Shown here: in pieces, positions 37,486 to 64,000 of the stretch
How the letters are laid out: the number at the start of each line of letters is the position of its first letter
How positions within the stretch are numbered: position 1 is the stretch's first letter
Origin: Candidatus Latescibacterota bacterium
GTDB lineage: Bacteria; Latescibacterota; UBA2968; UBA8231
Direction of reading: 5' to 3'
Assembly: GCA_965197905.1 (NCBI GenBank)
Contig: CBDAOB010000005.1
Location: 2,613,161 to 2,677,160 of the forward strand
DNA: 64,000 bases
The notes under the pieces: model-generated
What the model saw: only the letters and a program-made list of their open reading frames with translations
The model's database searches: none
What the model was told of the DNA's origin: nothing
Translations under genes and position numbers: made by a program

Positions 37486-39438
37486 CTACTGCGTCACCAC
37501 CTCACGACCGAAGCTGTCGGCGAAGATAAAGAAGTCGTCGAAATCCACAGTGCCGTTGCCGTTCAGGTCGAACAACGGGTCGAAGCCCCCATCCTGAAGC
37601 GACGCACCGAAGTTGTCAGCAAACAGGAAGAAGTCGTCGAAGTCCACCACCGGATCGTCATTGAAGAGACCCTGGACCGGCCTGCCTTCTGCGTCCCGGG
37701 GCAGTTCGGGCTCACCAATAACGACGGTACGCCTGCGGTCTCCCGCAGTTCCTCCGCGAATGACCTCCTCCGCCAGGTTGTCCCGATCTTTAGCCAGTAC
37801 TTTGTAGCGGTAGGTACCATCGTCGGAAACCGGTGCGTCCACATACTCGCCGAAGCCGACCCCCACATCGGTCAAATGTTCGAACAAGGCGTCGTCGACG
37901 CTGCGGTAGATGCTGTAGCCGGTGATGGCAACCCGCTGCACTCGGCGGCCGTTGAACACGAACCACATCACCTGACCGTCCCCTTCCGGCAGAGTCCAAG
38001 TCAAAGTAACTGCATCGTCCGCCCACTGCGCCAACAGATCGATTGGCGGTTGCGGCGGCAGATTGTCCCGGCCGGCAGCGCGCCCGCCGCTCACTGTCAG
38101 ACCGCTGGGCGGGGTCGAGAGCACGACCGGTGTGACTATGTCCAGCCGGCTCCTTCGTTCGGCTGCCCGCACCTGAGCACTGACCACCAACGCCGTATCC
38201 TGTCCTATCAGTCGAACGCTGGTGCGCGCAACTCCGGCGGATGGAACGACCACCGATGGACCCACGACGACGCCGGCCCCGCTGGCGACGCGAAAAACCA
38301 CATCACTGGAATCCTCCACGGCAGGCTCGCCAAAGGTGTCGAAGAGCTCTGCCACCACCTCCACCAGGTTGGAGTCCTCCACCGCTCGCGCAAGCGACAG
38401 ACCGATATTCGTGGCCGGAGCTACCACCCCCACCGTAAGCGCCACAGACTGCAATCCGGAAAGCTGCGCCTCGATCCGTACTGCTGTACTCGGAATCCCC
38501 TCGAACACCGCATCGACCACGCCGGCGGTCACGATCTGTCGGGTCCCCTCTGAGAAGACCCCCTCTCCTTGCACATCAAACACGATCTGAGAATGATCGT
38601 TGGTCGACAGAGCTTCCCCGGCGCGATTCTGAACCACCACCCGGAAAACCAGCTCGATGTCGCCGGCATCGGTGAGCCGTTCCTCCACGAGCTCCAATCC
38701 CAGCTGGTACGGTACGCCGGTTCGAGGCGCACCCGAAGCCAGCGCCGCCAACTCCGCCGGATCCATGTCGAAGCTATCCAGAAGCTCCCCACTGTCCGGA
38801 TCGAGCACGGCCAGAATCCCGGCTTCGAAATCGGTGACGAACAGGCGATCGCCGATCAGAGCCAGCCCGGTAGGCAGCTCCAACTCCGTTTCCAGCTCAT
38901 TGATCACCATGCCGTCTTCCGGGTCGATCTCGAAGATCTTTCCTGGGCGAATTCGGCTGGCAAATACCCGATCGCTGCCCGCCCCCAAACCCCCAACGAG
39001 ATCCACGCCCGGCTCCAATATATCCACCACGGTTCCGTTCTTCGAATCGAGCTTGTAGATCCGGTCTTCCAGGAAACTCACGGCATATAGCTGGTCGCCG
39101 CAGTAGGCCAGTCCATCGACGGAATTGGTCGGCGACGGAATACTGTTCCAAATTGTACCGTCTTGTGGATTCAGTTCGTAGATTCGTTGATCCGGATCGG
39201 TGGCGTCGGCGAAGTACAGGCTCGTACCCGAATACGCCAGACCGCAAGGACCCTCCGGTCTGCACAGAACCGGAGTGGGAAAGGATTCGAGGACACTGCC
39301 ATCCTCCGAGTCGATCAGCAAGATCTGGCTGTTTGCGGCATCCAACCCGAACAACCGCTCCTGACCCGCAACGCCGGCGGGTAGCGCCAGGAGACCAACC
39401 ACCGCGAAAAGCCGTAGCCTCGTCATGATAACCTGCAT
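37486..39438 (-). CDS. Secreted beta-propeller + Ig-like + FN3 + C-terminal dockerin/EF-hand protein
   Basis: Signal peptide (..LPAGVAG/Q); propeller blades (GLAYSGTSLYF, GLAYCGDQLY, GLALIGDRLF; DPxDG turns); FN3 (PPQPP..LTW..GYSIYR..YRYKV); twin DFDDFFxFADxFG motifs. Confidence 0.8.
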   Translation of the reverse strand: MQVIMTRLRLFAVVGLLALPAGVAGQERLFGLDAANSQILLIDSEDGSVLESFPTPVLCRPEGPCGLAYSGTSLYFADATDPDQRIYELNPQDGTIWNSIPSPTNSVDGLAYCGDQLYAVSFLEDRIYKLDSKNGTVVDILEPGVDLVGGLGAGSDRVFASRIRPGKIFEIDPEDGMVINELETELELPTGLALIGDRLFVTDFEAGILAVLDPDSGELLDSFDMDPAELAALASGAPRTGVPYQLGLELVEERLTDAGDIELVFRVVVQNRAGEALSTNDHSQIVFDVQGEGVFSEGTRQIVTAGVVDAVFEGIPSTAVRIEAQLSGLQSVALTVGVVAPATNIGLSLARAVEDSNLVEVVAELFDTFGEPAVEDSSDVVFRVASGAGVVVGPSVVVPSAGVARTSVRLIGQDTALVVSAQVRAAERRSRLDIVTPVVLSTPPSGLTVSGGRAAGRDNLPPQPPIDLLAQWADDAVTLTWTLPEGDGQVMWFVFNGRRVQRVAITGYSIYRSVDDALFEHLTDVGVGFGEYVDAPVSDDGTYRYKVLAKDRDNLAEEVIRGGTAGDRRRTVVIGEPELPRDAEGRPVQGLFNDDPVVDFDDFFLFADNFGASLQDGGFDPLFDLNGNGTVDFDDFFIFADSFGREVVTQ

Positions 39439-39450
39439 CCCTCCACTGGT

Positions 39451-42400
39451 TTAGCACAGCAACAGAAGCTTGCGGGTTTGATCGAACCTGCCCGCCCTGA
39501 GACGCACCATGTACACGCCGCTGGCCGCCGATCGGCCACCATCGTCGAACCCGTCCCACTGCACAGAGTGGAATCCGGGTTCCCAGCCGTTCAAGTTCCA
39601 TGTTCGCATTCTCTGTCCGAGCACGTTGTATATACTCAGCTCGATATTGGGTTCCTCCGCGGAACTGGTCAAGGAGGGAACCGCGACCGGCAGGGTGGTG
39701 CTGGGATTGAACGGATTGGGATAGTTCGGATGTAACGCAAATGCGGTCGGGACTACTTTGGCAAATGCCAGTTGCTCCACTCTCCACGCGCGCCCTGCGC
39801 CGCGCCCTACGAGACCTTCTTCCACCACGAATTCCACGTTTCGCGGTGGTCCCTGGAGCCGGAAGAGCAGATCGACGCCAACGTCGTTGCCCAGCTCAAC
39901 GGCGGACTGCCGCCCTTTGACGTGGTCGGCAAAAGCGAAAACGCCGCCTTCCTCATGTACGAGATGGAGGCGCGTCTCGCGGCCACCCAATGCGAGCGCC
40001 GTGTCGACCGTTCCCACGTACTGCAGGATCGGAGGATCTGTTCGTACCGAAAACCCGTAACCCGTGAGTTTCGGCAGCTCGTGGAGGCGCAAACGCAAAG
40101 CCACCTGCCCATCATGGAACGCCTCCGCCCGCAGCTGAAGATTCGAACCTTTGGCGACTTCCGCCCCTTGAGAATTGGCCAGCTTGCTGGTGTTGGTTTC
40201 TCCGAACTTCTGCTTGAGAATGCCCAGATCGGAGGACCCGACTTGTCCGTCCCGATCCAGGTCGAGAATAGGATCTGCGCTGCCGAAACCGTTCGCCAGA
40301 ATGAAGAAATCCCCGAAGGACACGCGGCCGTCGCCGTTGAAATCCTCGAAGGTGAGAGCGGCTGACGCCTGATTGGGCCTCAACCGGACAGGCTCACTCC
40401 ACGGCCCCTCGAACTGCCCGTCGAAAACGCGGGCGCGCCACCAGTAGGAGCGCGTCCGCACCAGATCCTTGTCGACCCGCCAACGGGTGGAACCTCCGAA
40501 CCCTTCCGGGATATTCCCCTCCCTTGCGACGATGGTCGTGAAGTTCGAGCTCGTGGAGATGTGCACGGTGTAGGTCAGTTCCGCCCCGGCATCTACCGGA
40601 ACGGCGTTCTGGATCACGAGAATCGGCCGCTGCGGCTCAGCACCTTGCTCGAGGCCGAGAATCATCGGCGTGCCGGAGACCAGATCGACCGACGGCGTAC
40701 CTTCGGCAATCGAGCTCTGCTCGCTTTCGTTGGGAGGTGACTGGTTGTCGGAAGCGGAAATGCGGTAGCGATAGACCTGACCGTCCACCAGTCCCTGATC
40801 TAGGAACCGCGGTTCCGTAAGATTGGTGGCCACGGCTTCGAAGGTTCCGTTCTGCTCGCGGTAGACGCTGTATCCGGTGAGATCCTCCTCGGTGTTGGGC
40901 TCCCAAACCACCAGATTTGCCCCGGAACCCGGAAGCACGGAAACGGCGTCGGGAATCGCGGGAGGCTCCCCATCCGGATCGGATCTGGTAGCGAAGCTCA
41001 TCACGGCAGTTACCGTAGGTCCGTTGCCGGCGCGGTCCGATGAGCCAACTCGGTAATGATAAGTAGTATTGGGCTCGAGATTCGTCAGCAGCACCCTGTG
41101 TTGCACGTCGTCCACTGGGTCGCCGATTACGGAGCCCAGATAGGGAGACTCGTCGAAGTCGACATACGAGTCGGCGAGCTCGTCGGTGGTCCAGGTGATG
41201 GTGGCGCTTCGGTCGGTTATGGCGACTTCATGGGGACCGTCCACGATGCGCGGTGGCTCCAGATCGGGGCCGGAATCCGTCTGCGTGCGGACCAGAAACG
41301 GTTCCGGTGTCTCGTTCTGGCTGGCGTCGACGAAACTCATTCTAAACACGTACTCCGTATTTGCGGTCAGGTTGGTAATTGTGGTCTGCTGGACGTTTTG
41401 CCGCACAATGACCTCGTGAGTGAACAGCTCGCCCTCTGCGTCTTCGTACTCGATGGTGGCGGCAGCGGCCTCGTCCGTGCGCCACGCCAGCACTACTTCA
41501 TCATCGGTTTGCGCGACCACCCGCGGCTCTTCGACCAGTCTTGGCGGTGAGAAGTCGGTTTCCACGCCGGTAGATACGATCGCCTTGGAACTGGTAGCCG
41601 CTCCGTTCCCGGAAGGATCGGTGGATTCCGCCTGGAAGTGGTAGCGTTGGCCGGACGTCAGGTTGGTCAGGGTCACCACATGGCTTTGCACGTCCTGAGC
41701 GTTTCCAACGATCTGATCCAGCTCTTCGGTGGTGCCGAAACGGATGAAACTGTCGGCTACCTCGTCCGTTTCCCACGCTACCGTAAAGGAGTCGGCGGTT
41801 TTTTCAAGAATTCTAGGAGCGCCGGTTATAATCGGCAGCTGGGTGTCGGCGAAGCTGTCCGTGACGAAGAAACCGTCACCACCCGGCGGTTGCAGGATCT
41901 TGCCGGACCCTCCCTCTATCAGCTTTTGCAGAAACTGCGATTGCCCTCGTCGGGCGCGGTTGCCGGCACGGTCGCGACATTCGATGATGAAGTTGTATCC
42001 CGTTCGAGGACGGAGCTTGGTGAGACGCAGGCTGTGATCGGTCACGAACTCATTGCTGGACACCTGGCCGCGAATCAAACCTCTTCGCGAGAAACCGAAG
42101 AACCTAACTCGCGAGGTAGCGCGCTCATTGGTCTTCCAGCGTATGACGGCCGTCCGATTCGTCCAGTTGACCTTCATTCTCCCGATGTGGGGGGCTTGCG
42201 GTCCGGAAGAGACTGGGTCCGGAATCGCAGCTCGACGCTGTGCAGCTCGGTGCCAGCAGGATCGGAGCTCGCCAGATTTCCGGACAGGTCTGCGCTGGAG
42301 ACGACAGCCTCGTATTCGGTGCCTGGCTCCAGGTTCGGAATGACCATCCGATGCCTCTGGACCTGGGCCCCGTTTTCCAGGCGTCCGCTGCGCCCGCCGG

Positions 42401-45400
42401 CCTGTTCGGCCTCATCGGTGTCTACTACTTTGGCGGAGGGGCCCAGGGCGTTCCATTCCACGATCGACGAGGACGGTTCGTCCGTATCCCACACGACCGT
42501 TACGCCGTTGGGGGTCCGCGCCACGAAACGTGCCGGCGGCGAGGAGATGATCGCCGGTGGGGTCGTGTCCGGAATCGACTTCGTCTTGAAGCCGATCGGT
42601 CCGCTGCTGGTCTTGTTGCCAGCCACATCGGTGACCTCAACCGTCGCGCTGTATTCCCGATCCGGCTCCAAGGGTGAAAGGACCAGTCGGTGAGTGGTCC
42701 GAAAGTTTGGATCGACTGTGGTCCTGCTGTGGCCGTCCAGGACATAAGGCAGCGCAATGGCGGCGGGCTCGTCGGTGCTGGTCTCGATAACGGCGTCGCT
42801 GGTCGTGGTGGAGACGACGATGGGGCCGGTGTTTATATCGGGCGGATCGGCGTCCGGCCCCGGATTGGTGGTGACCGTAAAAGCTTCCGCCTGCTGCGCT
42901 GCGGCGATCTTTGCCGAAGCGAGAACGGGAAACAAGGTTGGGCCGTTGCCGGCGGCATCGACCACGCTTACCTGCACATGGTAGGTGGTTCCCGGCTTCA
43001 GTCCGACGACCCGGAACTTGTGATCCGATGTCAGCCCCGGCGAAACCAGATGACCTGACCCGGATGCGGAGGTGACTCCGTAGTCGACGGTGGCGGAGGT
43101 GGGTTCGTCGGTGCCGAAATCGAGCTCGAAGTTTTCGTGGGACAGACCTTCGACGATAGGTGGTCGCGTATAGACCGGCGCGATGATGTCGGGTGCTTCG
43201 AGGGTCGAGAACGTGAAATTCGTGCGCGTGCTCGAGTTGTCCGACGGATCTGTAGACCCCACGGAACCTGAGTAGGTGGTGTTCGTTTGCAGGTTAGTTG
43301 CCTCGATGGCATGCGCCGTCACATCCGCCGGATCCGTTAAGGTGAGCTCTTCGCCCTGCCGGGGTCGTAGCCGGACGTGGCTGTCCGCAACCTCGTTTGT
43401 CCTCCAGGTAATGGTTACGCGATCGTGCTTGCGGTCCGAGATGATCGGCAGTCCCAGAACCTCAGGCGCCACCACATCGGCCTCGGCTTCCGTAGTAAAC
43501 CGGCCCGTCGCTTGGGAGGAGCCGGAAACCACGTATTCGTACTCGGTCGCGGGGGTCAGGTTGGTCGCCAACAGGGAAGGTTCGTCATCTAGGTCGGAGA
43601 CCACGGTGACTCGATTATCTGGAGCGTCGACCGGATAGTAGGTCAAAGAGGCGTTTGTCGGCCGGTTGAAACGCACGAAAATGGTCGCCCGGTCGTGACT
43701 GACCTGCTGCGTGGCAGGGCCGGCCGTTATCTCGACCGGTGCCGCCGGCTCCCCGAGCGTCTTGAAGCTCAGAACCTCTGATACCGTGGCGTTGCGGTTG
43801 AGGTCGGAGGCCGTCACCTGGAAGAAGTATTCTGTCGCGGTCGTCAAGCCGGTGACATTGAAGCTCTGCTGCTTCTGGCGCACGGTCGTGCTGAAGGGCG
43901 CCAGCGGATCGCTCAAATTGCCGTTGGTGCTTATGACGACGAGACCGTCCGCCGGCTCATCCGCTTCCCAGCGTATCCTTGCGCGGTCGATTCCGATGTC
44001 GTTGGCAGCCGGCAACAGAGTAAACACCGGACCCTCCACGTCGGGCGTTCCCCTGGTGGTGAAGGTGACCGTTTTGGGTGGAGCGACGTTGCCAGCAGCA
44101 TCCTTCGCCACCAGCTCCACCTGGTAGGTCGTCCCGGACTCGAGCCGGGTCAGGTTCACCCTCTTTTTCCGCTTGCGCTCGGTCAGGGCCACCTGATCCC
44201 TCCCAGGATTCGCCGTCGTGCCATAGGTCGCGGTCAACTCAACCGGCTCGTTGTAATCGACGGCAATCGTCACGCCCGATTCCGAAAGGCCTTGGAGATC
44301 AGGTCCTATTTCTACCAGCGGTAGATTCTCATCCAACGCGGTCGTGGTCTCGAACCCCGTACTGCCCTCTGCCACGTTCCCCTGTGGATCCCGTAGGGTC
44401 ACATGCCCGGCGTACCTGGTGCCAAGGGTCAACCGGGTGACCTCCACCCGGTGCTCTGTTGCAAGATCGGTAAACTCGATGCGCCTTGTTTCGCCGGCGG
44501 CGAGGACCTTGGCATTCAGCTCCGGCGTGACCTCGAGGGTTCCAGTAGTCGGCTCGTTGGAGCGGACCAGCATCGTCGCTCGATCGGTGCCGATGCCCTC
44601 GGCGAAAAATTCCTCGATTTCGGGAGGCGTCTGATCACGCCCATCAAGAGTGCGGAATTGACCACGAAACGGGGGCGTACTGTTTTGAAAACGATCTTGG
44701 ACCTGTACTTCGAAGAAGTGGGTAGTGCCGGGATCCAGGTTGGAGAAACGCACGGAATGGCTCGATCTCAGGTCCAGGCTTTCCCCCTGAATCGCCTCCG
44801 ACAGATCGCTCCGTTGCGACAGCAGCACCCTCATCCGGGTGGGCTCGTCGGTCTCGGCGGTGATGGTCGCTTCGTCGTCGGCCAAACCGACGGCAGCCGG
44901 ACCCGCAGCGAATCGGGCGGGATCGGTATCGGGCCCATCCCTGGTGACGATTTCGATCGGATCGGAAGAGCGCTCGTTACCACTCAAGTCCCGAATGAAG
45001 ACGCGCAGAAAGTAGCTCGTACTTGCGCTGAGTCCCGAGAGGGTGATTGCGTGCACCGTGCTCGTTTGGGTGCCGGAGGCGAACAGCCCGTCGCTGAGAT
45101 CCTGGTCGGTATCGTAGCGGATCCAGGATGTGGTGAGTTCATCCGATGAGAATTCGAAGATCGCGCCGACATCGCTCAAGCCCCGAAAAGCGGGTCCCGC
45201 CGTGAAGCTGGGCAAGATAAGGTCGGCTACCGCGTCCGTGGTGAACGCCCCCGAGCGAATCTCGGAACGAAGACCGACCCCATCCTCCGATTGCGCTTCG
45301 AATTCGTAGGTGGTCGCGGGATCCAGACCGGCAATCTGCAGGGCGGGATTTTCATCGAGCTGGTCCGACCGTACCTCCTCGAACTGCTGCATAGTAGCGC

Positions 45401-48400
45401 CCGCCTTTGCCGCAACCGCCGGCCGATAGCGCACGACGTTCTTGGTCGGTTCGCTCATCTTCCAGCGCACGACGGCGCCGTCATCGGTGATGCCCTCGAC
45501 GAAGGGATCGATTACAAACGCCGGCGGAGTCGTATCGGGTGCCAGGAGGGTCAGGGTGGTTCCCTCGAACGGCTCGGTCGTGTTTCCGGCAGCGTCCCGG
45601 GAGGTGAGCGAGTAGCGGTATTGCGTCGCCGGGCTCAGTCCGCCCACCGTGACCTCATGGTCTAAGACGAGATCCGCAACAATCTCGCCAAACTCCTCGG
45701 TGGATCCCGGGCTTGCGTCCATCAGGTTGACGACGCTGTTGGAGCGCTCATTGGTGCGCCAGGAGAAGGTGACGAAATCGGCTCCCGGGCCCGTCTGGAC
45801 GAAGGAGATTTCCGGCGCTTTCCGATCGGCCTCGGTCTCGAAGGTGGCCGAATACTCGGCCGTCAGGCCATCTGGATCCGTTGCCACCATGCGCACGGTA
45901 TAGGAGGTTCCCGGATCCAGCCCGCGGGCGTTATAAACGGGCGCGCTCGCACCCGCTGCGACCTGCTGAGGAGCTTGCCCGGTAATGCCAAGAAAGATAT
46001 CGAAGGTCAGTGGGTCGCCATCTACATCGCCGGCCGCCCCGGTGATCTGCGGATTCAGGCGAACCTCGGTTGCCCCGTCCAAAGGAAATTCCGCGGCGAT
46101 CGTCGGAGGATCGTTCACCGGAGTCCATTCGAGGGTGATGGTCTGGGTAGCGGCTGAGCCGGTGGCGGGATCCGTAAGGGTAATGGTCGCCGGCGTGCTG
46201 CCGAACTGGTCCTTCACCGGAGTAAATATGAGGCTGCCGACGGCGACGTTGGACACCAACCCGCTGTTGTAGTCAATGGCGTTGAATACCAGGGTGGTCT
46301 CATCCCCATCCAAGTCCTTGCCGTGCCCCGCAGTCACCAGTGTGAGCGGAGTATCTTCCGTAGTCACATGGTTTGCGTCGAACGGGGGATCGATCTGCGG
46401 AGGATCATCGACACTGGTGACGGTCAGGGATACCGCTGCCACGTTGCTGTCGGAGGTGCCGTCATTCACCTTGAAGGTAAAACTGTCGGCGCCGTGGAAA
46501 TTCGGGTTGGGCGTGTAGGTGACGTTGGGCGGGGCTCCCGTCAGGGTGCCGTTGGTCGGGTTGGTCACGATCGTATATGAAACCGCAGCCCCCTCGGGAT
46601 CGGCTCCCTTCAACACAACCGCCACGGCCACATCCTCCGCCGTTTCCACGTTTTGCGGATCGGCCGTGGGCGGCTTGTTGATCTGGATCGACACGGAAGC
46701 CTGGCTCTGCCCCCCCGGCCCGGCCACGAACGCAGTTGCGGTACCAGAATCGTCGTACTTTGCAGTCATCGTGTAGGTGATGGAGGTGGTCAGGGCGTGG
46801 CTCCTGTCCAGCTTTTGACCGGTGGCATCGTTCGACTCGACAAAGGTGGTCTGCGAATACCCGGTCACCTGTACCGTGAGTGTGACCATGACGCCCGGGG
46901 TGCCGGAGGAAGGGCTCGCCGAGATCGAGACCTGAGGAGCAGCCGGGGCGTGGATCGTCAGTGTCTTAGAAGCACTGCCCGAATATACCGCGTCACTGAT
47001 GCTGGCAGTAACACCGTAGACACCTGGTGCCGTCGGTGGTCCACCGATGCCCTGATTGTTCTGTGTATAGGTGTAGATGAATGCGACACTGATCGCTTGA
47101 CCGTTGAACGTGGCAGTGGCTCCGCTGGCCGCAATCGGCGAGCCGGTAAATCCGGCCGATTGCTCCGGCAGTGTAACGGTCGCTTCGGGGACATCGATGG
47201 TTACCTTGTTAGCCGAGCTGGCGATGACCGCGGAGCCAAAGCCACCGGCGCTGGTAACGAGAAATCCCGCCGCCGCCCCGACGGTAAATGACCTGCCGTC
47301 GTCGGGGATTCCACTCCCGATACAGACCACGGCAATGTAGAAGATCTCCGTGGTGGGTATGGTCTCCGTCGCCGAAGGCATAATTGCACTTGGACTGTCT
47401 ACGGCGGCGACAGCCGAGCCAATCAAGCCATCATCCGAGCTGAAGGTGTTGTCGGTGCTTTTGTATAGTTCGATTCTTACCAGGTGAGTGGAGAGAATCG
47501 GATTGGGTGTGGAGCCGCTGATGGTAATCGCGAAAGAGGTGAGGGTCGTGGCCCCATCGCCGGTTACCCCGACAGCCATCACCTGAACCTTGTCGCCCGG
47601 GAATTTGGTTATGGTGCCGGCAAGCCCCGTTGCCGCGGTGCTTTCTGAAATGGTCACGAAGGTGACTTTGCGCAGCCGATCGTTCGCGTTGTCAGCGATG
47701 AACATGGCGATCTCGACGCCGTTGGATGTGGTGCAGTACAACCCCTGCGGATCCGCCAAATTACCAAGGAGGGCATCAAGGGCGTCTAGGTAAGTCCAAC
47801 CCGATGAACCCGAGAACGTGAACTGGCCGGCGACTCTCGAGATGATGCCGGCAAAGATGAACTTCCGCACGACGTTATTGTAAGAATCCGAAACAGCGAT
47901 CGTCGAACCGGTGCCGGTTACGAAAACACCGCCCGGCATTTGCAGCTCAGCCGCCGTCGCCAGCCCACCATCTCCAGAAAATGCGCCCACACCTGTACCG
48001 GCTGCCGTGGTGATGAAACCGGTCCCGAAATCATATCGACGAATGCGGTTGTTCCCCTGATCGGCGATATACAAATAGGTGTCGGAATCATCCACCTCCA
48101 CATCGTACGGATCGCTCAGGGTGGCCGAGGTCGCCGCGCCGCCGTCGCCGGAGAAGCTGCCATTGCCAAATCCGGTGGCGCCGCTTCCAATTATGGTGGT
48201 TATGATGCCGGAGACAAGGTCGATCTTGCGGATGCGATGGTTGTTGGTGTCGGCGAAATAGAGATTCGTGCCGATAACGATGAGTCCTCGCGGATCGTCG
48301 ACGTTGGCTGACGTGGCCGCACCCCCAACTCCGGCGAATCCAGAAGTACCTGTACCGCCGATGGTGGTGATGATGCCCGTGCTCAGGTCGACCTTCCTGA

Positions 48401-49871
48401 TCCGGTAATTCCCAGAGTCGGAGATATACAATGCGGTGGAGGTCAGAAATATGCCCTTCGGGTTGCAGATGGCGGCGCTGGTCGCCTGCCCACCGTCCCC
48501 GCTAAACGCACCACTTCCATTCCCGGCGACGGTGGAGATGAGCCTGGTCACAGCGTCAACCTTGCGAATGCGATGATTCTGATCGTCGGCGATGAACTGG
48601 TTGCCTGACGCATCCAGCCACACGTCCTTGGGGTTAGATAGGACTGCGTTTGTGGCCAGCAGTCCGTCACCGACCCCGCCGCCGGCAACGGTGCTTATGA
48701 GTCCACTGCCGTTGTCTATCTTGCGAATGCGGCCGTTCGAAGAATCTGCGATGAAGACGTTGCCCGACCCATCCACAAACACGCCGCCCGGGAACGCTAT
48801 GGCGGCAGCCGTAGCAGCAATGCCGTCGCCGTTGTAGAAAGCCGAGCCGATACCGGCGATGGTGCTTATGAACCCCGTGCCGACATCTACTTTTCTAATG
48901 TAGTTGCTGCCATCGACGCCGATCCAGAAGTCGCCGGCGTTATTGGCAAAGATTCCCACCGGACCGCTCATGTTGGCCGAGGTCGCTGCTCCGCCGTCGC
49001 CGCTATGCCCACCGGTTCCGGTTCCAGCCACCGTGTTGATGGTGCCACCGGTTACTTTTCGAATGCGGTTGTTGCTCGTATCTGCTATATAGATGTTCCC
49101 CGATGAGTCAACCCACAAACCTTCCGGACTGTCGAGGGTGGCGCTGGTGGCGGCACCCGCATCGCCAGAAAAGGAGCCGTTGCCCAATCCGGTGGCGCCG
49201 CTGCCAGCCACCGTCGTGATAATACCGGTTCCCGCATCGACCTTGCGAATGCGGTGGTTGTTTCGATCGGCGATGTAGAGATCGCCCGTCGAAGTCACCC
49301 GAACATCCATCGGATTGTCGAGGGTGGCACTTGTCGCCGCCCCACCGTCACCCGTGAAACCGGATGAGCCCCCAGTTCCGGCAACTACATTGATTATGCC
49401 CGTCGTTGCGTCTACCTTGCGCACGACATGAGCAAATCTTTCAGTGAGATAGATATTTCCGGCCGCATCGACATCGACGCCGTAGGGATTTGATAGAAAT
49501 GTGTCTGTTGCCGGAACGCCGTCGAGGGAGTTAGCAGTTAGGCTCCCGGCCACCGTCCTGATGATGCCGGTGCTTACTGTGACTTTGCGGATCAGGCCAT
49601 TGAAAACATCGGCTATGAAAATATCTCCAGATGCGTCGACAATTACCCGGCGAGGAAAACTCAGGCTGGCGTTGGTCGCCTGGGCGTTGTCGCCGACCCC
49701 ACCACCGGCGACGGTCGATAGCTCGTACGGCTGTGACCCAGCAGGTTTGATTGCGGAAGAGCAAAGTAGAACGATCGCGGCCAGCAGACCAGCGCTCGAT
49801 ATCGATCCCGTGCCGCTGTGTCTTTTGTGCGACATTGGTCGAAACATCGTGGCCCCGCGTGTTTCCATCAT
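39451..49871 (-). CDS. Giant (~3,470 aa) secreted protein: NHL propellers, MBG/Ig/cadherin-like domains, 16 FN3-like repeats, dockerin, cohesin-like domain, FlgD-Ig/T9SS CTD; -1 frameshift at G6 42189-42194
   Basis: ORFs 42174..49871 and 39451..42177 join when one C is added (DRKPP-HIGR-MKVNW), matching the intact paralog (DETPPMFRPRPNLVW). NHL repeats IADxxNHRIRKVD; CTD NYPNPFNPSTT...SGVY...RKLLL. Confidence 0.85.
47650..49730 (-). repeat. NHL repeat array (~12 units of ~56 aa, probably two six-bladed propellers)
   Basis: Repeating ITTVAG.G..GFSGDGGAATSA.L..P..V.VD..GN.YIAD..N.RIRKVD. Confidence 0.85.
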
Positions 49872-50048
49872 CTCGACGCCTGTATTGCAGTCATGCTGTC
49901 TGGAGCGATCTCCTAACCAGAGCGATTTCCTATTGCTCCGGGTCGTTATTTATGCGCAACAAGATACGAAACGGAGGCAAACGTTCCAACAGAAATAGTG
50001 GCGGTTTTGACTTTACCCGACCCACTGAAGTATTGAGCCACATTGCAG

Positions 50049-53000
50049 TTACCTCACCAACAGCATCTTGCCGGTCTGCTCGAAGCCGCTGGCCTCCAAC
50101 TTCATGAAGTAGACTCCGCTGCCGCTGCTGCGGCCGGCATCGTCTTCGCCATCCCAGGTGACGGCGTGGAACCCCGCTTCGCGCTGATCGAGCTTCCATG
50201 TTCTCACCGGTTGGCCCAAGATGTTATAAAGCACCAGCGACGCGGACCCCGCCATTCCCGGAGGAATCGCCAGCGGAATCGTGGTCGACGGATTGAACGG
50301 ATTCGGGTAGTTGGGGAAAAGTGCATAGCTGCGCGGCAACACCCGCGCCGTGCCCAGCTCGGCGACGCTCCAGGCACGGCCGGCCCCCTTGCTGACGTAG
50401 GCTTCGTAGAGCTGCAATTCGATGTTGCGCGGTGCCCCTTTCATCTCGAACAGCAGATCCACGCCCAGCTCGTCTTCTATGCTCACGCCGGGTTGGCGGC
50501 CCTGCACATGCTCGGCGAACACGAACAGGTCACCCATCTCATGGTCAAGCTGCAATGCGGCTTGCGGGCCACCCAGATAAGCCACCGAATCCACCCTGCT
50601 GCGGAAAGCCAGGATCGGCGGATCCGCGCGCACCCCCAACCCGTATCCCAACAGCTGGGGCACCCCTGTGAGCCGCAGTCGCACCACCACGTGCCTGCCC
50701 ATCGCATCCGCCGCCACCTTCATATGCGAATCCTCGGCCACCTCCATCTTCTGGGTAAACATGAGCTTCCTCGCGGCTCGTTCCCCGAAGCTCGTCTTCA
50801 GCAAGGCGAGATCACCCTGCCCGACCCGGCCGTTCCGGTCCAGATCGAGGGTCGGGTCGGCGCTCCCGAAACCACTGGCAAAAATGAAGAAATCGGCAAA
50901 GGAAACATTGCCGTCGCCGTTGAAGTCGCGGGAGGCCAGCGCCGGAACCGTCGCCTGGCGGGGACGCAGTCGCAACGGCTCGCTCCACGGTCCGGTAAAA
51001 CGGCCGTCGGTGGCCCGCACCCGCCACCAGTAGAAGCGGCTGGTGACCAGCTCGCGACTCACCCGCCAGCGGGTCAGTCCGAACCCTTCGTCGATATTGC
51101 CGCCGCGGCCAACCACATCGGCGAACGCGGAGCTGGTGGAGATCTGCACGGTGTAGGTCAACGGCTCTCCCATCTCCACCGATTCAGCGTTCTGGATGAC
51201 CAGGATCGGGCGACTGGCGGTAGCTCCCTGCTCCAACCCGAGAATTGCGGGCGCCCTGGGGACGTTGTCGGGATCAGGCGTCCCGGATGAGATCTCACTG
51301 GCCAGGCTTTCGTTCGGAACCGCCTCGCGATCCACCGCCGTAACCTGGTAGCGATAGAGCCGACCGTCTTCAAGGCCTTGATCAAGGAATCGGTTTTCTT
51401 GCACCTGGGTAGCGATGGGGGCGAACGAACCGTCGTCGTCGCGGTAGATCGTATAACCGCCCAGATCCGCCTCGCCGTTCATCGTCCATTCCAGCAGGTT
51501 CTCGCCGCTCCCGGGGAATACCACCAGACCCTCGGGCGCCAGCGGCGGGGTTTGGTCCGGTTCCCCCAAGGTGGTGAAGGTGGAAACAGAGCTCAGGACC
51601 GGACCGTTCTCCGAGCGATCCGTGGAGCCCACCCTGTAGTAGTAGGTGGTAGAAGGGTCCAGATTGGTGATGATCACGCGATGGTCCAAGCGATCCGAGA
51701 GACTGCCGACAACCGTGCCCAGATACGGCGACGGGCCCAATTCCACATGGGAATCAGCCAGCTCATCCGTCCTCCAGGTCAACGTGGCACTCTGATCGGT
51801 CAAGGCGACCATATCGGGTCCACTTAGGATCCGCGGCAGCTCGAGATCCGGCCCCCGGTCGGTAACGAGGCGCAGGACGAACGGATCCTGGGTCTCGTTG
51901 CGGCTGGCATCGCTGACGAAGATGCGCAGGGCGTATTCGGTGTCCGCCTGCAGGTGATTGAGAACGACCTGCTGATCCGCACGACGCTGATCCACCTGGC
52001 TGGTCAGGGTTTCACCGCCGCTTTCGTACTCGATGCGGGCGGCGGCGGCTTCGTCCGTATGCCAGCCGACAACCACTTCCGCGTCGGTGCGCGCCACAAC
52101 CTGAGGCTCGCTCTCGAAGCGGGGCGGCGACAGGTCGACCTCCGCCGCAGTGGCGGCGATAGCGAGGGGACTCAACGATGGTCCATTGTCCGACGGATCG
52201 GTCGACTCGACCCGGTAGAAACACTTCTGACCGGGGACCAGGTTGGTCAGGGTAACCCGGTGCTGTCGCACGTCGCGAGCCGAGCCCACCGAGCGATCGA
52301 CGGCTTCCGTAGAGCCGAAACGGACGAAACTGTCCGCAAGCTCATCGGTTTCCCACATGATGGTCAAGCTCTGGTTGGTGCGCTCGCTGATCCACGGTCC
52401 GGCAGTGATCGCCGGTGCCGTCATGTCCGGATTCACCTCGGTAACGAAGATGCCCTCTCCTCCCGATACCTGCAGCAGTTTCGCGGCCGCCTCCGTTAGC
52501 GGCTTGTTCAGAACCCGGGAGGCGCCCGCGATCGCGACGTTTCCAGCTTGATCGACGGAGGTGATGCGGAACTGGTAATAGCTGCGCGGCACTAGATTCG
52601 TAAGAGTTATGCTGTGGTTCTGCGCCAGCGCGTTGATCTCCTCGAACTGCGGCTGCTCGTTCTGCGATACCCTGATGTAGTCCACTCTCGAGGTTGCCGG
52701 CTCGTCGGTGCCCCAGAAAATGACCGCTGTTTGATTGGTCCAGACGAGATTTGGCCGCGGCCTGAACATGGGTGGGGTTTCGTCCGGTTCGGCCAGGGTG
52801 GTAAAGGCATGGTCGACGCTGTGCAGCTCGGTGCCTGCCGGATCGGTGCTAAACTCGTTGCCCGCCAGGTCGCGGCCACTGACCTTGAAGTGGTAGGTAG
52901 TGCTGCGATTCAGGTTGGACACGGTGAACGAGTGCTGCTGCTGCAACCCGCCGCGGTCGATATGCACCCCGTACTGGGCGTTCAGACCGTAGTCGATGAT

Positions 53001-56000
53001 CGTAGAGGCCGACTCGTCCGTGGTCCAGGCGATCGTCGCCTCGGTGTCGCTCTTGCCATAGACCGTGGGACCGGTGTCGATCTTCGGCGCCTCTTCATCC
53101 GGCGCGCCTTCGGTGGAGAAGCTGAAGCCGGTCCGCACCGTCGTGTTGCCCGCCGCATCCTCGAGCTCGAGCTCGTAGGTGTAGTCGCTGTCGAGCTCCA
53201 GGTTGGACAGCACCACCCGGTGAAAATCGAGGTAGCTGGCTAGCGGCACCGTCTCGGAGACACCGGCCAGGTGGTGCGTGAGTCGCAGCTGGGCGGGCTC
53301 GTCCAAGGTCACCTCGATCACCGCCTCGTTGTGGGTCGTCGATACGGCCAGCGGACCGCTGCTGATGAGCGGCGGAGCCGCATCCGGCTCCATCTCGGTG
53401 TTAACCGTCACGTCTCCCGAGCAGGCCGGGCCGTTGCCCACCCCGTCCGTGGCGCACACCCGCACGTGATACGTGGCGGCAGGGGCCAAGCCCACCAGCT
53501 GCCACTCGTGGCTGGGCACCAGATCGGCTCGGGGAAGATTCCCCAGCTCGTATCCCGCCGTCAGACCGTACTCCAGCACTGCGGTGGTCGCTTCGCTGGT
53601 GGTGGCGGCCACGGTGGCGCGGTCGTAACCGACGTCCAGTATCGCAATACCGCCAATGAATTCAGGAGGCGTCAGATCGGGTTCCGCCGGCGTAGTGAAT
53701 GACAGCGCCAGGCTGGCCACGGGACCGTTCCCGGCCGCGTCCGTGGAAAACGCCTGGAAGGAGTAGGTGGCGTCCCCTTCCAGATTGGTGAGCGCCAGGT
53801 CGTGGTCGAACAGGTCGACGGCATTCACCACCGATTGCTCTATCCCGTCCGGGCCGGTGAACCGCACCTCCGCGTCCGCCGGCTCGCTGGTGCGCCACTG
53901 TATTCGTGCCCGGTTGAACTGCAGGTCGGCTACCGAGGGCTGACCCTGAAAGGCGGGCGCCGTCACGTCGGCCATGTCGGTGGTCATGAAGGTTCCCCCG
54001 TTTGGTCCGGAGACCAAGCCGCCGCCGTTCATCGAGCGCACCGCGTAGGTGTACTCGGTGTCGGGAGAAAGATTGGTCAACACCAGGTTGTGCTCGGTGT
54101 CGGGGGTGCCCCTGGTCTCGATGAAGGATTCAGCCGGGTCGGCGGTGGGATAGTAGGTCACCTCGGCATCGGTGGCCTGGTCGGTCTGCCAGTAGATCGT
54201 AGCCCGGTCCAGGCCGACACCCTGCTCGATTGGCCCCGCGGTAACGGTCGGTGGCGTGCTGGGTGCTGCCGCCAGGGTATGGAAGCTCACAATCTCGGAG
54301 ATCGCCGTGTTTCCGGTGGCGTCCGTTGATGATACTTGCAGGAAATAGTCCGTGTCGGCGGTCAGGTCGGTGAGGTCGATGGAGTGACTCTGCTGCCGGA
54401 TCAGATTGCGCAGGGCCAGCTCGCCGCACTCAGATCCGAGTTCATACTGAGGATCACCTCGCCGTCCGCCGGCTCATCCAGGCTCCACAACACCCGGGCG
54501 CGGTCGATCTGCACGTCTGAGGTATACGGCAACACCGTGAACACCGGCGCCGCGACGTCGGCGTCCGTCTCGGTGACAAAAGAAAAGGTGATCTCACTCG
54601 TGGCGTTGCCGGCGGCATCCCGCGCCACCAGGCCCGCGTGATAGGTTGTTCCCGCTTCCAACCCGCTCAAGCCCTCGCGATGATCCTGCCGCCGAGTGCT
54701 CACCGGCCGCACCTCCGCCCCAGTCAAATCCGGATTGACCGAGTACCGCAGGGTCAATTCCACCGGCTCGTCATAGCTCACCTCGATGGTCGCGCCGGAA
54801 ACGGTGATGCCCTGCGCCACCGGCCCCGTTACTACCTGGGGCAGATCCAAATCTTCCATGCGCAGGGTGGTAAAGGAACCCACCCCGGCGTCGGAACTGT
54901 TGCCCTGGGCATCCTGGGCGAGAACAAACAGATCGTAGGTCGTATCCGGCGCCAGCTGGGTCAACGACACCCGGTGCTCGGTGGACGGCGTGATCTGGAA
55001 CAGGATGCCACCCTCCGCCAGGCTGTTGATCTTGGCGTTGCCGAACGTGGCGTAGCTGAGGCTGCCGATGGTCAGCTCGTTAGTGCAATAGACGATGGTC
55101 GCCCCGGTGGCGCCGATGCCTTCCGCGTACGGCCCCTTCACCAGCTGAGGCGGGGTCAGATCCTGCTCCGCCAGGGTCGAGAACTCACCCCGCACCGCCG
55201 GCGTTTCATTGCCCGCCCCATCGCGGGCGACCACCTCGTAGAAGTACGGCGTGTCCGGCTCCAGATTGGTCAATGAAACGCTGTGATCGGCTTGCAGGGT
55301 AGCGCTCTCGCGCAGCACCGGATTGTCGAGGTTGGCGCTGGTGGACAGCAAAACTTGAAGTCGCACCGGCTCGTCGGCTCCCAGAACCAGAATGCCGCTC
55401 TGCTCGGTCAACCCCTCGATGGCGGGACCTATGAGAAACGACGCTGCCTGCAGATCCGGTCCGGCACGAGTGTCGAAGGAGCGCGCATCCGAAATCGTCT
55501 CGTTGCCGCTGCCATCCTGAATGAAGACCCGGTAGTGGTATGTGGTTTCCGCCAGCAGCCCGGCCAGGGTGATCTGGTGGCTACCCGAGGGCTGGGTGCC
55601 CGCGGCCAGGCGCCCGTCACCCAGATCGATGTCGGTGTCGAAGCGCACCTGGGCGTTTGTCGGCTCGTCGGTTCCAAACTCGATCTGCGCCGATGCCTCG
55701 GTAACGCTGAGAGCCGCTGGTCCGTGCACGAAACCTGGCTCTACCTGATCGGCTTCGGCCTCTGTGGTGAAGAAACCAACCTCCACCACCGACGGATTAC
55801 CCACCGCGTCGTGGGATTCCACCTCGATGCGGTAATCCGTATCCACCGACAGGCCGCTCAGGCCAACCGCGTGGTCCTCGAGCAAACCCGGGTCGATGAT
55901 CTCGCCGCCCGTCTGTTGCGTCTCCACCACCTTGGCCACACCCTGAGGTTGCCAGCGCACCCGGCTGTCGCTCAATTCATCGGTTCGCCAGCGCACCACG

Positions 56001-58615
56001 GCGCTCTGCTCGGTGATCCCTTCCACGTACGGCGACACCAAGAACTGAGGCGGATCTTCGTCCGGTGCCGCCAGGGTCAGTGCCTGGCCGCTGACCGGAT
56101 CGGAGGTATTGCCCGCCTCGTCCGTTGAGCGGAGCTCGTAGTCGTACCAGGTGGCCGACGACAGGCCCTCCAGCGTGACGCTGTGCTCGGTAACAAAGGC
56201 TCCCTCCACCACGTCGAAGACGGTCTGCTGCTGGGTGGCAACCACCTTGGCAGGGGGAGCATCCTCTGCGGCGTGGACGGCCGTGTTGCCCGGCTCGTCG
56301 GTGGACCAGCTCAGGGTCAGCATATCGTGGGTTACGGCAGCCCGCACGTTGGACAGCACCGGCGGGCGCAGATCCTGTTCGGTGGTGAAGCCAAAGGAGG
56401 CTGCAGCCGTAGCGCCGGCGGGATCACGGGCGGTCACACTCCAGCCGTAACCGACGCCCGGATCGAGATCCATGGCGCTGTAGGTGGTGGCGCTGGTGCC
56501 CCCGGCCACCGAGGATTCTGCTCCAGCCGGACCGAGCGAAACGTCGTAGACCAGGCTCTCGCCATCGACATCGACCGCGCTCCATGACAGCAGCGGCGAG
56601 AGGGTGACTTCGGTGGCGCCGTTGGCGGGGAAATTGGCGACCGGGACGGAAGGCGGATCGTTGATCGGGTTCCAGGTGAGGATCACGGCCTGGGTAGCTT
56701 CGTTCCCCGTGGACGGATCGGTGAGATGAATGGTGGCGGCGGTAAAGCCATGGGCGTTAGCGACGGGCGTGAAATCGATGCCGGCACTGCCCCCCGCGGC
56801 GGCGCCAACCAGGCCGGCGTCGAACCCGGAAGCAGACCAGACCAGGGTGCCCACGTCGGTGTCTACGTCCGCCGCATTGCCGGCCCCGGCCACTTGCAGA
56901 CCTATGTCCTCGTCCGCCTCGAAGTTGCCCGCCAGTGCCGTGATTTCGGGCGGATCGTCCACGGCTGTCCAGGTGAGATTCACCGACTGCTCTGTGCTCA
57001 AGCCGTAGACGTTGGTGCGGGTTATGGTCACCGCATCATTGCCGGATGCGTTGGTTACGGGCGTGAACTGGATCATGTCACCCACCACCGCAACACCGGA
57101 AATGAGAATGACATCAGTATCGCTCACGCTCCAGGTTCCCGCCTGCGGGTCCTTGCCCATTAGATCCAGCTCCAGAACACGGTCCTCCAGCTCCGTTGCG
57201 GCGGCGATGACATCCACCTGTGGTACGCTGTTGACCGTGATCGACTGACTCACCTGCACCACGTGTTCGCCCAGGCTCTTGGGGCCGCGCACGGTCAGCA
57301 GGGCTTCGTGGCTCCCTGGCGTGGAATAGGTCACCGCCACCGATTTGGTGAACGAAATCCCCGCGCCATAGGTGTTGTCGGAAATGGCTCCCCCATCGGT
57401 ATTGGTCTCCAGAAACGCCGCATAGGAATACCCGGTCACCTGAATAGTGAAGGTGACACCGAATGGCGGATTCCCCTGAGTAGCCGAAGCAGACAAGGTC
57501 ACCACCGGAGCCGGCGGGTCGTTGATGGTCAGGGTTCCAACCGTATTGCCGCTGTAGTTGGCGTCACTGATGGTAGCGGTCAATCCGTAGACGCCAGGGG
57601 CGGATGGCGGTCCTCCCAACGGCAGCAGGTCTTTGGTATAGCTGAAGCCGACTGACAACCCCGCTGGCGTGGTGGTAGCCCCGCCGGCCTTGGCGGTGCC
57701 GTCGTAGGACGCGGTGAGATTGTTCAGCGCGATGATAGCGGTCGCCTGGGCCACCGAAAAGCTGCTGGAGGTAGCCGGGGTCAAACCCGAGACTGTCGTG
57801 GCCATGATGGTGCGACCGGATCCCGCGCCCGATACGGTCAGATCGGTGAAGACCGCCACGCCGTTGACGAAGGATACCGTGGTGCTCGACAGGGAGCCTG
57901 ACGGACTGAGCTCGAGGGTCACCGTGCCGGTAAAACCTACATCTGTGTTGCCGGCGGCGTCCTGCGCCGCGACGCCGATAGTAAAGGGCGACAGGTGGAC
58001 GACGCCGCTGGGCTGGTTGGTAAATGCCAGCTTGCTGGCGGTGACGTTCGACATGACCGTGCTGGATGTAGCGGTGGGCAGATCGGTGCCGACACCATCC
58101 TGGTCATTGGCGATAAGAGCGAAGTCTTCGCTGCCTCCGGACGCGGTATAGATCAGGTTAACGAAGGTCGCGACCCCGTTGAGAGCGGTGATGACGTTGT
58201 TGGTGAGAAATCCTGCTGCTGATTCGGTAAGGGTTATGGTCTCCTGGAAGTCGAGATCGACGTTGCCCTCGGCGTCCTGAGCCTGTACCAGCGGCTGCGT
58301 CATGAGCGCTTCGCTGCTGACCGAGCCCGCGGGTTGGGTGGAGAAAGCGAGCTTGGTGGCGGTGATGTCCAGTTGGGGCAGGAATCCGACGCGGATGCCA
58401 TAGGTCGTGCTAGCCGGCTGAGTCGCGCCCTGCGCCGGCGCCGCCGGTGCGACGGATCGCAGCTTGTAGGTGGTGCTGAGATTGTTGACCGAGACGACGC
58501 TGCTGACGGCGCTGGACTTGAGCTGGTAGGTGGTGCTGCTCGCATCCTGGGCGAAGGAGGCGGAGAACCAGCAGATCGAGGCGGAGAGGAGCAGCAAGAT
58601 CGTGCGCGCACTCAT
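50049..58615 (-). CDS. Giant (~2,850 aa) secreted paralog: triple-STTY N-terminal module, Ig/MBG/cadherin-like domains, 16 FN3-like repeats, dockerin, cohesin-like domain, FlgD-Ig/T9SS CTD; -1 frameshift near 54420
   Basis: GGAGG RBS then ATG 58615 (MSARTILLLLSASICWFSASFA/Q). The frame change at ~54420 continues as ELALRNLIRQQSHSIDLTDLTADTDYF into ORF 50049..54290. CTD NYPNPFNPSTT...GKMLLVR. Confidence 0.85.
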
Positions 58616-58661
58616 GATTTCGCCTCCCGTGGAGGGACGGTTTTCACATTGACGCGCCATG

Positions 58662-60288
58662 TCAATCTCGATTCTCTTGGTGGACGGCGAACTCGCGTCG
58701 AACTGATGGTGGCGCCGAGGTGTCCATTGATAATCGTTCCTCGAGAGCAGCCAGTCGCGCTTCCAGGCGTTCGGTGCGTTGCTCCAGCACCTCGATGCGC
58801 TCGTCCTTCGAAGCGGACTCCTGCTGCAGGACCTCGATCTGTTCTTCTTTCTCCTCGACAATCTCGCTCAGCCCCTGGATCGCCGCGAGGGCAACTCCGG
58901 ATGGATCGATGGTGGAGATGGTAGTGTCGCTCTCGCCAACTGCGAAGGCAGCGTAGAAATCCTGTGCCATCGGACCGATGTGTTCGATGCTCGGATCCTG
59001 GCCATCGAAGCTCCATTGCTTGATCGGAACCTGGAGGAGCTGCTCGAGGACCCTGCGATGGTCGACGGTACGGATGTTGCGCTTGCGAGTGCTGTCGGAG
59101 ACGCCGGCCCAGGCGCTGGCGCCGGCAGCGAGGGTTACACCCTGGGTGAGGCCGGCGTTGGAGAAGATGCGGGTGCCTCCCGAAGCACGGACGTTGAACT
59201 CGTCGGCGACTGTGGAAGAAAAATTGGTGGCAGAATTATCCGACCATACGAAGGATCCGTTGTGCCAGGCTTGGGCTTCCCGCCCTGCAGCTAAGGAATA
59301 ATCGCCTTGGGATATGTTACTTAGACCGCCGGAGATCACGGCGTACTGGCCGCTGGCGATGTTGACATTACCACCACCAATTGCCGAGTAGTCGCCACTC
59401 GCAGTGTTGCCATTTGGTGCGAAGGGTGCACCTCCTCCCGAAACGGTTGAGCTTTGGCCACTGGCAGTATTTCTTCTTCCACCGCCCACGCTGGATTCAA
59501 TCCCGGTTGCGCTGTTCTCCTGTCCACCGCCAACCGTCGATCTCACTCCTTGTGCAAGATTCAGGCTGCCGCCGCTTACAGTTGCGTCTCCACCGCTGGC
59601 AGTATTGGACATGCCGCCCCCAACGGAAGCGGCTTGACCTGCAAGATTATTGGACCCGCCGGCAACAGTAGCCCGCGCACCTTGGGTATCGTTCGAAAAA
59701 CCACCACCTACAGTGGCCCAGTTGAAAAGCGCAGAGTTGTCAAATCCTCCACTCACGACTGCATAATCCGCTGAGGCGGTATTGCTAGAGCCGCCGGTGA
59801 TGACCGCTAGAAGGCCGGAAGCGATGTTGTTTTCGCCACCACCAACAACCGACGAACTACCGACGGCGTCGTTGCTGTGGCCGCCGCTGATAACCGAGTA
59901 TGGGCCGCTGGCCGCATTGGCTTGTGCAGCGACCAATCCCCCCCCTCCCCCTACCGTTGAGTACTGGCCACTAGCCGCGTTGGCGGCACCTCCTCCTACA
60001 GTCGCAAAGTTGGCAGTAGCAGTGTTAACTTGCCCTCCCCCTATGGTTGCCACTAATACCACTGACTGTGTTGTTGAATCCTCCCCCAACGGTGGATTGG
60101 GACCCACTTGCGGTATTACCATCGCCTCCACTTACCGTCGCCCAAAAATTGGTGGCTGAATTTCCGTCGCCTCCACCAACGGTTGAATTGCCTCCGCTAG
60201 CCGTGTTGCTCTGGCCCCCACCAACTGCATCAAACCCACCACTTGCAGTATTGCTCTGACCACCGCTAACAGTGCTATGACCGCCGTT
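58662..60288 (-). pseudogene. Tail-fibre-like protein: Gly/Asn 14-aa repeats + peptidase S74 intramolecular chaperone + coiled coil; 5' end removed by IS256; +1 frameshift near 60050
   Basis: Repeats (T/V)VGGGxxNxAxGxxS run in frame from 60288 (NGGHSTVSGGQSNTASGG...) right up to the IS end. The C-terminus has W..VSD...KRNI, HIGPMAQDF, ALAAIQGL and a heptad coil. Confidence 0.8.
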
Positions 60289-60396
60289 GAGCTATAATCA
60301 AAAGGTGTGGAAATACACAGAAGGCGATCCTACCCTTCCTTTGTAATTAGACATTACACGCGCCGGGGCTGTCCCGGCAGGAAGAGGAGAATCGCC

Positions 60397-63777: not shown

Positions 63778-64000
63778 GTCGTTTACACACCATTTGACCC
63801 CAGCTCGTCCCCGAACCCGCCGCAGGCGGGTTGCAGCGGAGGCCCGGCAGGGCCCGAAGCCGGGGACACGATGTTATAGGCCGTGCCCCACACGGCCTCA
63901 GGAATGACCCTTCCGCGCGAGTTACGGAGCCCCTGAATCCGCTCCCGTCGGCTGGAAAAGCTGCTCAGGCACACTGACCGTGATACTACTACAGGAGGTC

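Follow-up and report, generated by a model that had tools for sequence, protein, structure and literature searches.

A giant stalk protein with a predicted three-to-one clamp may display mosaic adhesive trimer-like fibres in a Latescibacterota bacterium

The mosaic adhesive trimer (MAT) fibres of Bdellovibrio bacteriovorus form an S74 subfamily (Caulton et al. 2024), and the sections of that paper covered here state that the MAT N-terminal domain presumably binds a surface element yet to be identified (PMC10769870). The covered parts of a preprint on PamT from the candidate phyla radiation (CPR) report that a tail fibre-like gene close to the pam operon is conserved, and draw no link between PamT and that gene (Troman et al., PMC13278184). 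Cohesin-dockerin pairs outside the Clostridia include, in the covered sections of two papers, a Ca. Stygibacter scaffoldin with a C-terminal domain (CTD; PMC8542988) and the 'planctosome' (PMC6461901). Here we analyzed a four-gene locus of a Candidatus Latescibacterota bacterium that encodes a MAT-like fibre beside a giant secreted protein, giant A. The locus lies in a stretch of 64,000 nucleotides, referred to as the window (GCA_965197905.1, contig CBDAOB010000005.1, positions 2,613,161 to 2,677,160), which sits on contig C5 of the source genome G000 (91% complete; its contigs include C1, C2, C3 and C5). We propose that giant A is a surface stalk of type IX secretion system (T9SS) type that displays trimeric, CTD-less MAT-like fibres by means of a 3:1 clamp at its tip, a reading to which we assign a probability of roughly 0.68. 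MAT fibres, T9SS cargo and non-cellulosomal cohesins are already known; the stalk fusion, the predicted clamp geometry and the PamT link are put forward here. A literature search that left subscription papers and supplements outside its scope found no description of the clamp or of the locus.

The four genes occupy positions 37,486-60,288 of the window on the minus strand, in the order fibre, giant A, giant B and protein C, separated by 46, 177 and 12 bp. A sequence-only reading of the window had described four co-oriented genes with short gaps and two giants of ~2,850 and ~3,470 amino acids; the arrangement was confirmed, and the lengths hold as codon spans of about 2,850 and 3,470. One frame break each was found in the fibre gene (~60,050), giant A (~54,420) and giant B (~42,190). 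The features of the fibre gene and giant A are as follows.

58662..60288 (-): S74-chaperoned MAT-like trimeric fibre, 3' fragment, with Gly/Asn/Ser-rich repeats, S74 domain and coiled coil
58944..59099 (-): Peptidase_S74 intramolecular chaperone domain (PF13884 over cut-off, E 9e-9)
50049..58615 (-): giant A (~2,850 codons), from profile matches; the signal peptide and a PKD-like domain were identified by eye
58364..58549 (-): candidate fibre clamp of giant A; three S-T-T-Y-x-L/I strands ending Gly-Phe; matches PamT profile positions 7-79
51564..56629 (-): Fn3 stalk of giant A with about 17 units, of which the frame break splits one
50778..50933 (-): dockerin-like pair of EF hands in giant A, the second helix being degenerate (PF00404 E 0.0026, below cut-off; helices in the model)
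50334..50747 (-): cohesin-fold domain of giant A, from a structural model
50052..50333 (-): T9SS type A-like CTD of giant A (TIGR04183 over cut-off)

Giant A consists of a signal peptide, the candidate clamp (its first ~55 residues), two Ig-like domains, an MBG domain, PKD/cadherin-like domains, ~17 Fn3 units, further Fn3/Ig domains, a dockerin, a cohesin and a CTD, and an iterated profile counted about 17 core Fn3 units in each of the two giants. The C-terminal 301 residues of giant A were modelled from a 34-row alignment (pLDDT 88.6, pTM 0.84). When the cohesin model was compared with 48,161 chains, the top 15 VIA-align rows were all cohesins (Z 13.7-11.5; best match, rmsd 2.7 over 131 aligned residues) and Foldseek agreed; the cohesin profile PF00963 itself matched neither giant. 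The tail aligned with PorU chain 6za2_B (Z 10.8, rmsd 2.6, 94 aligned). The earlier description of both giants as ending in a dockerin, a cohesin-like domain and a FlgD-Ig/T9SS-type CTD was upheld by Pfam and NCBIfam and, for giant A, by structure, with cohesins as 15 of 15 top structural matches of its post-dockerin domain.

Both giants carry a TIGR04183 CTD over cut-off and a signal peptide read by eye, as T9SS cargo does. The core genes sprA, porU and porV, a search for which had been suggested from the sequence, were all found over cut-off in the genome, together with about ten PorV-family matches.

G000:C5:2579330-2583670: porU and porV, side by side, some 67 kb from protein C

Of the motor and ring components, GldM and GldN were sought; neither was matched in this 91% complete genome, in a search where no control genome gave a signal. 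The CTD motif was present in 61 open reading frames (ORFs) genome-wide. The giants thus resemble type A T9SS cargo of Bacteroidota in their CTDs and in the presence of SprA, PorU and PorV, and differ from it in the predicted CTD-less trimer passenger and in the dockerin and cohesin placed between stalk and CTD. No catalytic family in Pfam or NCBIfam matched any of the four genes, as had been read from the sequence, and a hidden phosphatase activity was rejected: the Pur_ac_phosph_N and PhoD_N matches are Fn3-type domains only. The stalk and CTD domains, the SprA/PorU/PorV set and the structure of the base support the earlier proposal of non-enzymatic display on long stalks by a T9SS-type route.

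The S74 assignment of the fibre was likewise sound, and PF13884 was over cut-off in the window fibre and in three paralogues on contig C1, which share the C-terminal S74 domain of MAT fibres. The window gene is cut at 60288/60289 by an IS256-type element, with loss of the signal peptide and N-terminal domain, so the usable fibres of this genome would be the C1 paralogues. These stand at the start of contig C1 as three S74 fibre genes, one of them frameshifted, followed by a giant built like A.

G000:C1:110-19367: three tandem fibres with near-identical N-terminal domains and differing shafts, and the sister giant

The C1 paralogues are longer than the window fragment, 45-51% identical and provided with a MAT-N-like domain. 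Where intact, they consist of a signal peptide, this domain, a repeat shaft and the S74 chaperone, with no CTD. Against the MAT N-terminal profile NF053851 a C1 paralogue gave E 1.2e-9 and 38 bits. As far as the covered parts of PMC10769870 describe them, Bdellovibrio MAT fibres and the C1 fibres have in common a signal peptide, an N-terminal domain (invariant in the MAT fibres, MAT-N-like on C1), a long shaft, S74 and several paralogues per genome; the C1 fibres differ in scoring 38 bits against a cut-off of 60, in their Latescibacterota-like host with T9SS parts and in a candidate partner encoded next door. A phage origin was rejected, as the paralogues have signal peptides and no viral relatives were found; a scan of viral contigs with the fibre N-terminal domain returned none.

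We examined the neighbours of genes carrying the fibre N-terminal domain, for which 61,640 cluster representatives exist at E<=0.001. Across 168 phylum genomes the domain occurred at 42 places in 28 genomes. At 14 of the 39 matches outside G000 the neighbouring gene starts with a short three-strand motif ending in Gly-Phe (the canonical motif); these 14 neighbours were picked by eye and used for profile training, hence they do not constitute a test. As an independent test, a motif profile of 12 rows was run on the phylum and matched 15 places, of which 12 were training rows; the three new ones lay directly behind the end of a fibre-type gene (two) or at a contig start (one). Further independent material came from metagenomes, where the best 80 of 436 relatives gave 75 MAT-N loci, 38 of them assessable (at least 450 bp downstream). 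This analysis revealed the motif in 36/75 loci, and among the assessable loci it stood in the next gene at 25/38 and within the locus at 29/38 (11/20 and 14/20 after clustering at 70%). Reversed ORFs used as a control gave 0 hits and all of G000 gave 1 hit. A CTD was carried by 34/37 motif proteins, most of them under 300 residues, and in genomes G015 and G107 fibre, motif, Fn3 stalk and dockerin follow one another in the window's order. Genome contigs scanned with one fibre N-terminal domain yielded two loci only. A sample of another phylum, comprising 251 genomes around one labelled Gemmatimonadetes, had the N-terminal domain in 4 genomes and the motif in none, the motif search having no positive control.

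Conserved short MAT-N proteins of 316-388 residues (L113-L128, e.g. L119:6210-7175) occur in 13 phylum genomes in a housekeeping context, with no S74 hit and no adjacent clamp gene. In G015, four tandem MAT-N fibres (L058-L059, G015:C2:216000-238000) have no adjoining clamp gene, and one clamp-like stalk gene is present elsewhere in the genome; because this sole clamp-like gene stands away from the fibres, the pairing there may work in trans.

The tip of giant A was connected with these motifs through the PamT profile NF058579. With signal peptides included, the profile matched A and the C1 giant at E 1.1e-4 each, and these fibre-adjacent genes were its only two hits in the genome. At E<=0.01 it hit only four places in the 168 phylum genomes. 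Each adjoins a fibre gene, and A and its C1 sister account for two of them. The two giants are sisters in a tree with support of 100/100, and the C1 giant follows three fibres. Positions about 7-80 of NF058579 also matched 7/10 canonical motif queries; because it matches both, the profile bridges A's tip and the canonical motifs. The matches to the giants span positions 7-79 of 241 and score 19-22 bits against a cut-off of 240, and do not amount to a full-length PamT with its truncated Ig domain in a pam operon.

We then modelled three copies of the N-terminal 130 residues of a C1 fibre with the 62-residue tip of giant A, using our own alignments; the clamp reading had been formulated before this model was run. 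The complex scored 0.71 (runs 0.68, 0.71 and 0.72), compared with 0.01 for the best of three controls. The score mark was reached by 116/157 solved and 2/215 mismatched pairs, counts that apply only approximately to this model. The runs shared at least 90% of contacts, with partner pLDDT of at least 71. In the best-resolved contacts, tip residues 8-10 met copy 1, residues 28-30 copy 2 and residues 50-52 copy 3, which are the three Tyr-x-Leu/Ile strands, and each strand met the same surface of its copy (residues 11-15, 83-85 and 92-94). One tip is thus predicted to bind across three fibre N-terminal domains, one strand per subunit. The PDB held no match to the profile of the fibre N-terminal domain better than E 0.77, which makes recall of a solved complex by the model less likely; a likeness at the level of fold may exist.

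Several observations weigh against the proposed clamp. Direct sequence evidence linking A's tip to the canonical motif is weak: 9/500 shuffled sequences aligned as well to the canonical motif (hhalign probability 2.8%) and 83/500 did so against 45 motifs, profiles of the canonical motif run genome-wide did not find the tip at E<=10, and the 12-row profile had no hit in G000 in the phylum scan. The mature tip without its signal peptide has no PamT match at E<=1. In the complex, the modelled N-terminal domain is that of a C1 paralogue, the window fibre having none, and our alignments set the tip in register with the canonical motifs. Among the neighbourhoods listed outside G000, 25 of 39 phylum matches lacked a motif next door (13 short proteins, 7 G015 fibres, 2 others and 3 cut or disrupted cases), as did, by threshold, 9/38 assessable metagenome loci.

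On a different account, the genes are independent adhesins gathered in a variable island, A's tip is a low-complexity leader resembling the motif and the fibre is anchored by other means. The weak direct match of the tip, the loss of the island from a closed genome of the same genus and the presence of S74 in only 4/40 relatives argue for it. In contrast, the PamT profile singles out just the two fibre-adjacent giants in the genome and all 4/4 of its phylum hits are fibre-adjacent, the complex model shows a threefold register, and G015 and G107 repeat the gene and domain order of fibre, motif, Fn3 stalk, dockerin; we consider independent adhesins improbable. A search for close relatives of the tip returned matches to Ig domains only.

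Sec export, S74-assisted trimer folding with self-cleavage, and CTD-guided export and anchoring are established T9SS and S74 biology. In the proposed clamp mechanism, giant A and the fibre would both pass Sec, and S74 would fold the fibre trimer and then cleave itself off. The CTD would take A out through SprA/PorV, and PorU would anchor it. The tip of A would wrap the three N-terminal domains of the fibre trimer in a 3:1, pseudo-threefold arrangement, so that the clamp, at the tip of A's rod, would hold the tag-less fibre and might also bring it out. We estimate the length of the rod very roughly at 90 nm (about 4 nm per domain). Giant B and the paralogues on contig C3 carry propeller tips fused to the same rod.

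If the clamp is real, it would explain how tag-less adhesive fibres are displayed, would predict a fibre at CPR pilus tips and would provide a compact 3:1 coupling module for surface display. It is a candidate partner for the very common MAT N-terminal domain, whose partner is left open in the covered sections of PMC10769870, and it would reduce that question to a 62-residue peptide and a 130-residue domain. More tentatively, and with somewhat less than even confidence, the ~55-residue pseudo-threefold beta-clamp may be a general receptor for MAT-type trimers across bacteria, grafted on tiny T9SS adaptors, dockerin proteins, giant Fn3 stalks and PamT. Were this true, trimeric fibres that lack a CTD would gain a route through the T9SS or onto it, and the Pam pili of CPR bacteria would end in a phage-like host-recognition fibre. 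Proteins with a MAT-N-like domain do exist in Patescibacteria, and the clamp motif resembles CPR PamT in matching profile positions about 7-80. The locus differs from the Pam pilus, as described in the covered parts of PMC13278184, in that the match is confined to an N-terminal segment far under cut-off and in that no pilin or chaperone is present here.

The locus had been regarded as one ~23 kb cluster. Its four genes are real, and the cluster proved to be the end of a larger island, the rest of which lies at the start of contig C1. In G002, a closed genome of the same genus, the gene that precedes the C1 fibres sits about 200 bp from protein C, and the last codons of giant B are still present in front of C as a deletion scar. 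Because of this adjacency and the giant B remnant, the C1 start and the window are most likely the two ends of one island, split over two contigs and lost from G002. The island would hold at least four S74 fibres and three Fn3-stalk giants. A fixed four-gene unit was rejected. The C-terminal module has its best named relatives in Latescibacterota and Handelsmanbacteria.

The element that cuts the window fibre has the following parts.

60289..63806 (+): IS256-type element whose Mutator transposase, present as two pieces, contains a group II intron
60307-61005 and 62959-63774: PF00872 transposase pieces
61260-62783: RVT_1/GIIM of the group II intron
62962-63060: RF00029

This composite of IS256-type element and group II intron is present in several near-identical copies in the genome, and the right flank of the window copy corresponds to the left flank of a further copy, located on C3. 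Among the copies in the window, on C2 and on C3 the flanks fail to pair, an observation that points to rearrangement or misjoining at the contig end.

The state of the genes raises the possibility that the window copy is a decaying island, with its fibre cut by the insertion sequence and A and B frameshifted, from whose genes no stalk is displayed. This account is compatible with the clamp reading, and we regard it as possible, at odds of about one in three. No other IS256 copy in the assembly carries the partner flank of the window fibre, and a search of the genome for a fourth fibre N-terminal domain found just the three on C1. The CTD of the C1 giant is also interrupted, by a repeated element. 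The frame state at ~42,190 (X1, X2 and X3) and ~60,050 (X1-X4) is shared by contigs from public runs of two samples and two studies; the library type is not on record and one run may be the source of the assembly. At ~54,420 it is shared by X1 and X3, from one sample. The presence of the frameshifts of A and B in public contigs also counts against the proposed display, in that this copy may be decaying. On the other side, comparison with G002 also shows frame changes in four or more ordinary orthologues on C1 and C3, so indels are common in the assembly, and the public runs have private indels, so that a shared long-read error is possible. The break in giant B falls in a run of cytosines, and the gap between C1 and C5 may contain the 5' part that the fibre lacks. 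In the neighbourhood of protein C, the seven ORFs matched to G002 were unbroken.

Giant B shares the stalk and base of giant A and has the following features.

39451..49871 (-): giant B (~3,470 codons), with signal peptide and Ig/MBG/cadherin-like domains
47664-49733 (-): NHL beta-propellers
40981-45992 (-): 17 Fn3 repeats
40195-40350 (-): dockerin
39754-40167 (-): cohesin-like domain
39460-39750 (-): CTD

Contig C3 encodes four more giants with the same stalk and base, starting with FG-GAP-type propellers (repeat name read by eye).

G000:C3:688000-722000 and G000:C3:1169000-1200348: giant arrays, up to 4,500+ aa, with one near-identical duplicate at a contig end

Judged by sequence, the tips of the seven paralogous giants are swapped by gene fusion (FG-GAP-type or NHL propellers). 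The interchangeable tips of the sequence-only reading therefore do vary, by a mechanism other than the one it had proposed: gene fusion or, in A and its C1 sister, the predicted fibre clamp. G002 has an array syntenic with the C3 giants, in which the tips differ.

The fourth gene encodes a propeller protein.

37486..39438 (-): protein C (650 aa), no CTD; domain borders partly read by eye

Protein C consists of a signal peptide, a beta-propeller, an Ig-like region, an Fn3-like domain and a terminal symmetric dockerin. This dockerin had been assigned to the type found in the giants, which was not confirmed: it is of a different subtype, the second helix being degenerate in the giants, and it is nearer to other dockerins of the genome (E values down to 2.6e-14) than to those of A and B, that of giant A being matched at E 7.7e-5. 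Dockerins occur in 29 ORFs genome-wide (13 terminal, 13 followed by a CTD tail and 3 other), and cohesin-CTD tails are similarly spread, the genome having eleven tails of cohesin size. A check for dockerin-bearing enzymes, which covered the four genes of the locus, found no catalytic family in them.

A full-length protein C is present in 5/40 relatives, and C is kept locally even where the island is lost. The synteny expected of the genes held in part: a giant adjoins C in two of the five (G016 and G024), a deletion scar marks a third (G002), and no giant is found in G014 and G006. These data bear on the proposal of a single non-enzymatic, cellulosome-like complex of all four products, with C docked through its dockerin on the cohesin of A or B. 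The cohesin fold is confirmed in giant A, the gap between B and C is just 12 bp, C lacks a CTD and needs a carrier, a giant stands directly before the C orthologue in G016 and G024, with giant B's last codons retained in G002, and cohesin-CTD scaffolds have been proposed in Cloacimonadota, in the covered part of PMC8542988. Set against this, the 13 terminal-dockerin and 13 dockerin-plus-CTD ORFs offer many possible partners, C persists without giants in G002 and lacks an upstream giant in G014 and G006, B does not cluster with the giants that precede C in G016 and G024, each giant has one cohesin with a dockerin beside it in cis, and the fibre has no dockerin. We therefore consider a dedicated complex unlikely, and a dockerin-cohesin assembly specific to the four products is not supported. 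Because dockerin and cohesin-CTD tails occur genome-wide, C is no proven partner of A or B; like many others, it is probably a dockerin-only passenger of some cohesin-CTD protein, which need not be either giant. Compared with the Stygibacter and planctosome systems, as the covered sections describe them, the locus shares the cohesin fold, dockerins, CTD-based surface attachment and a non-cellulolytic setting; unlike cellulosome scaffoldins, each giant has a single cohesin in place of a tandem series and carries its dockerin in cis, and the four genes yielded no enzyme domain.

Elsewhere in the window, positions 6724-15124 hold a tandem of two AcrB-family genes (1051 and 1279 aa, the latter unusually long) and one membrane-fusion gene. 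Positions 2319-3623, which adjoin a short-chain dehydrogenase gene and an STT3-like gene, encode a 434-aa protein that contains three DUF5069 repeats.

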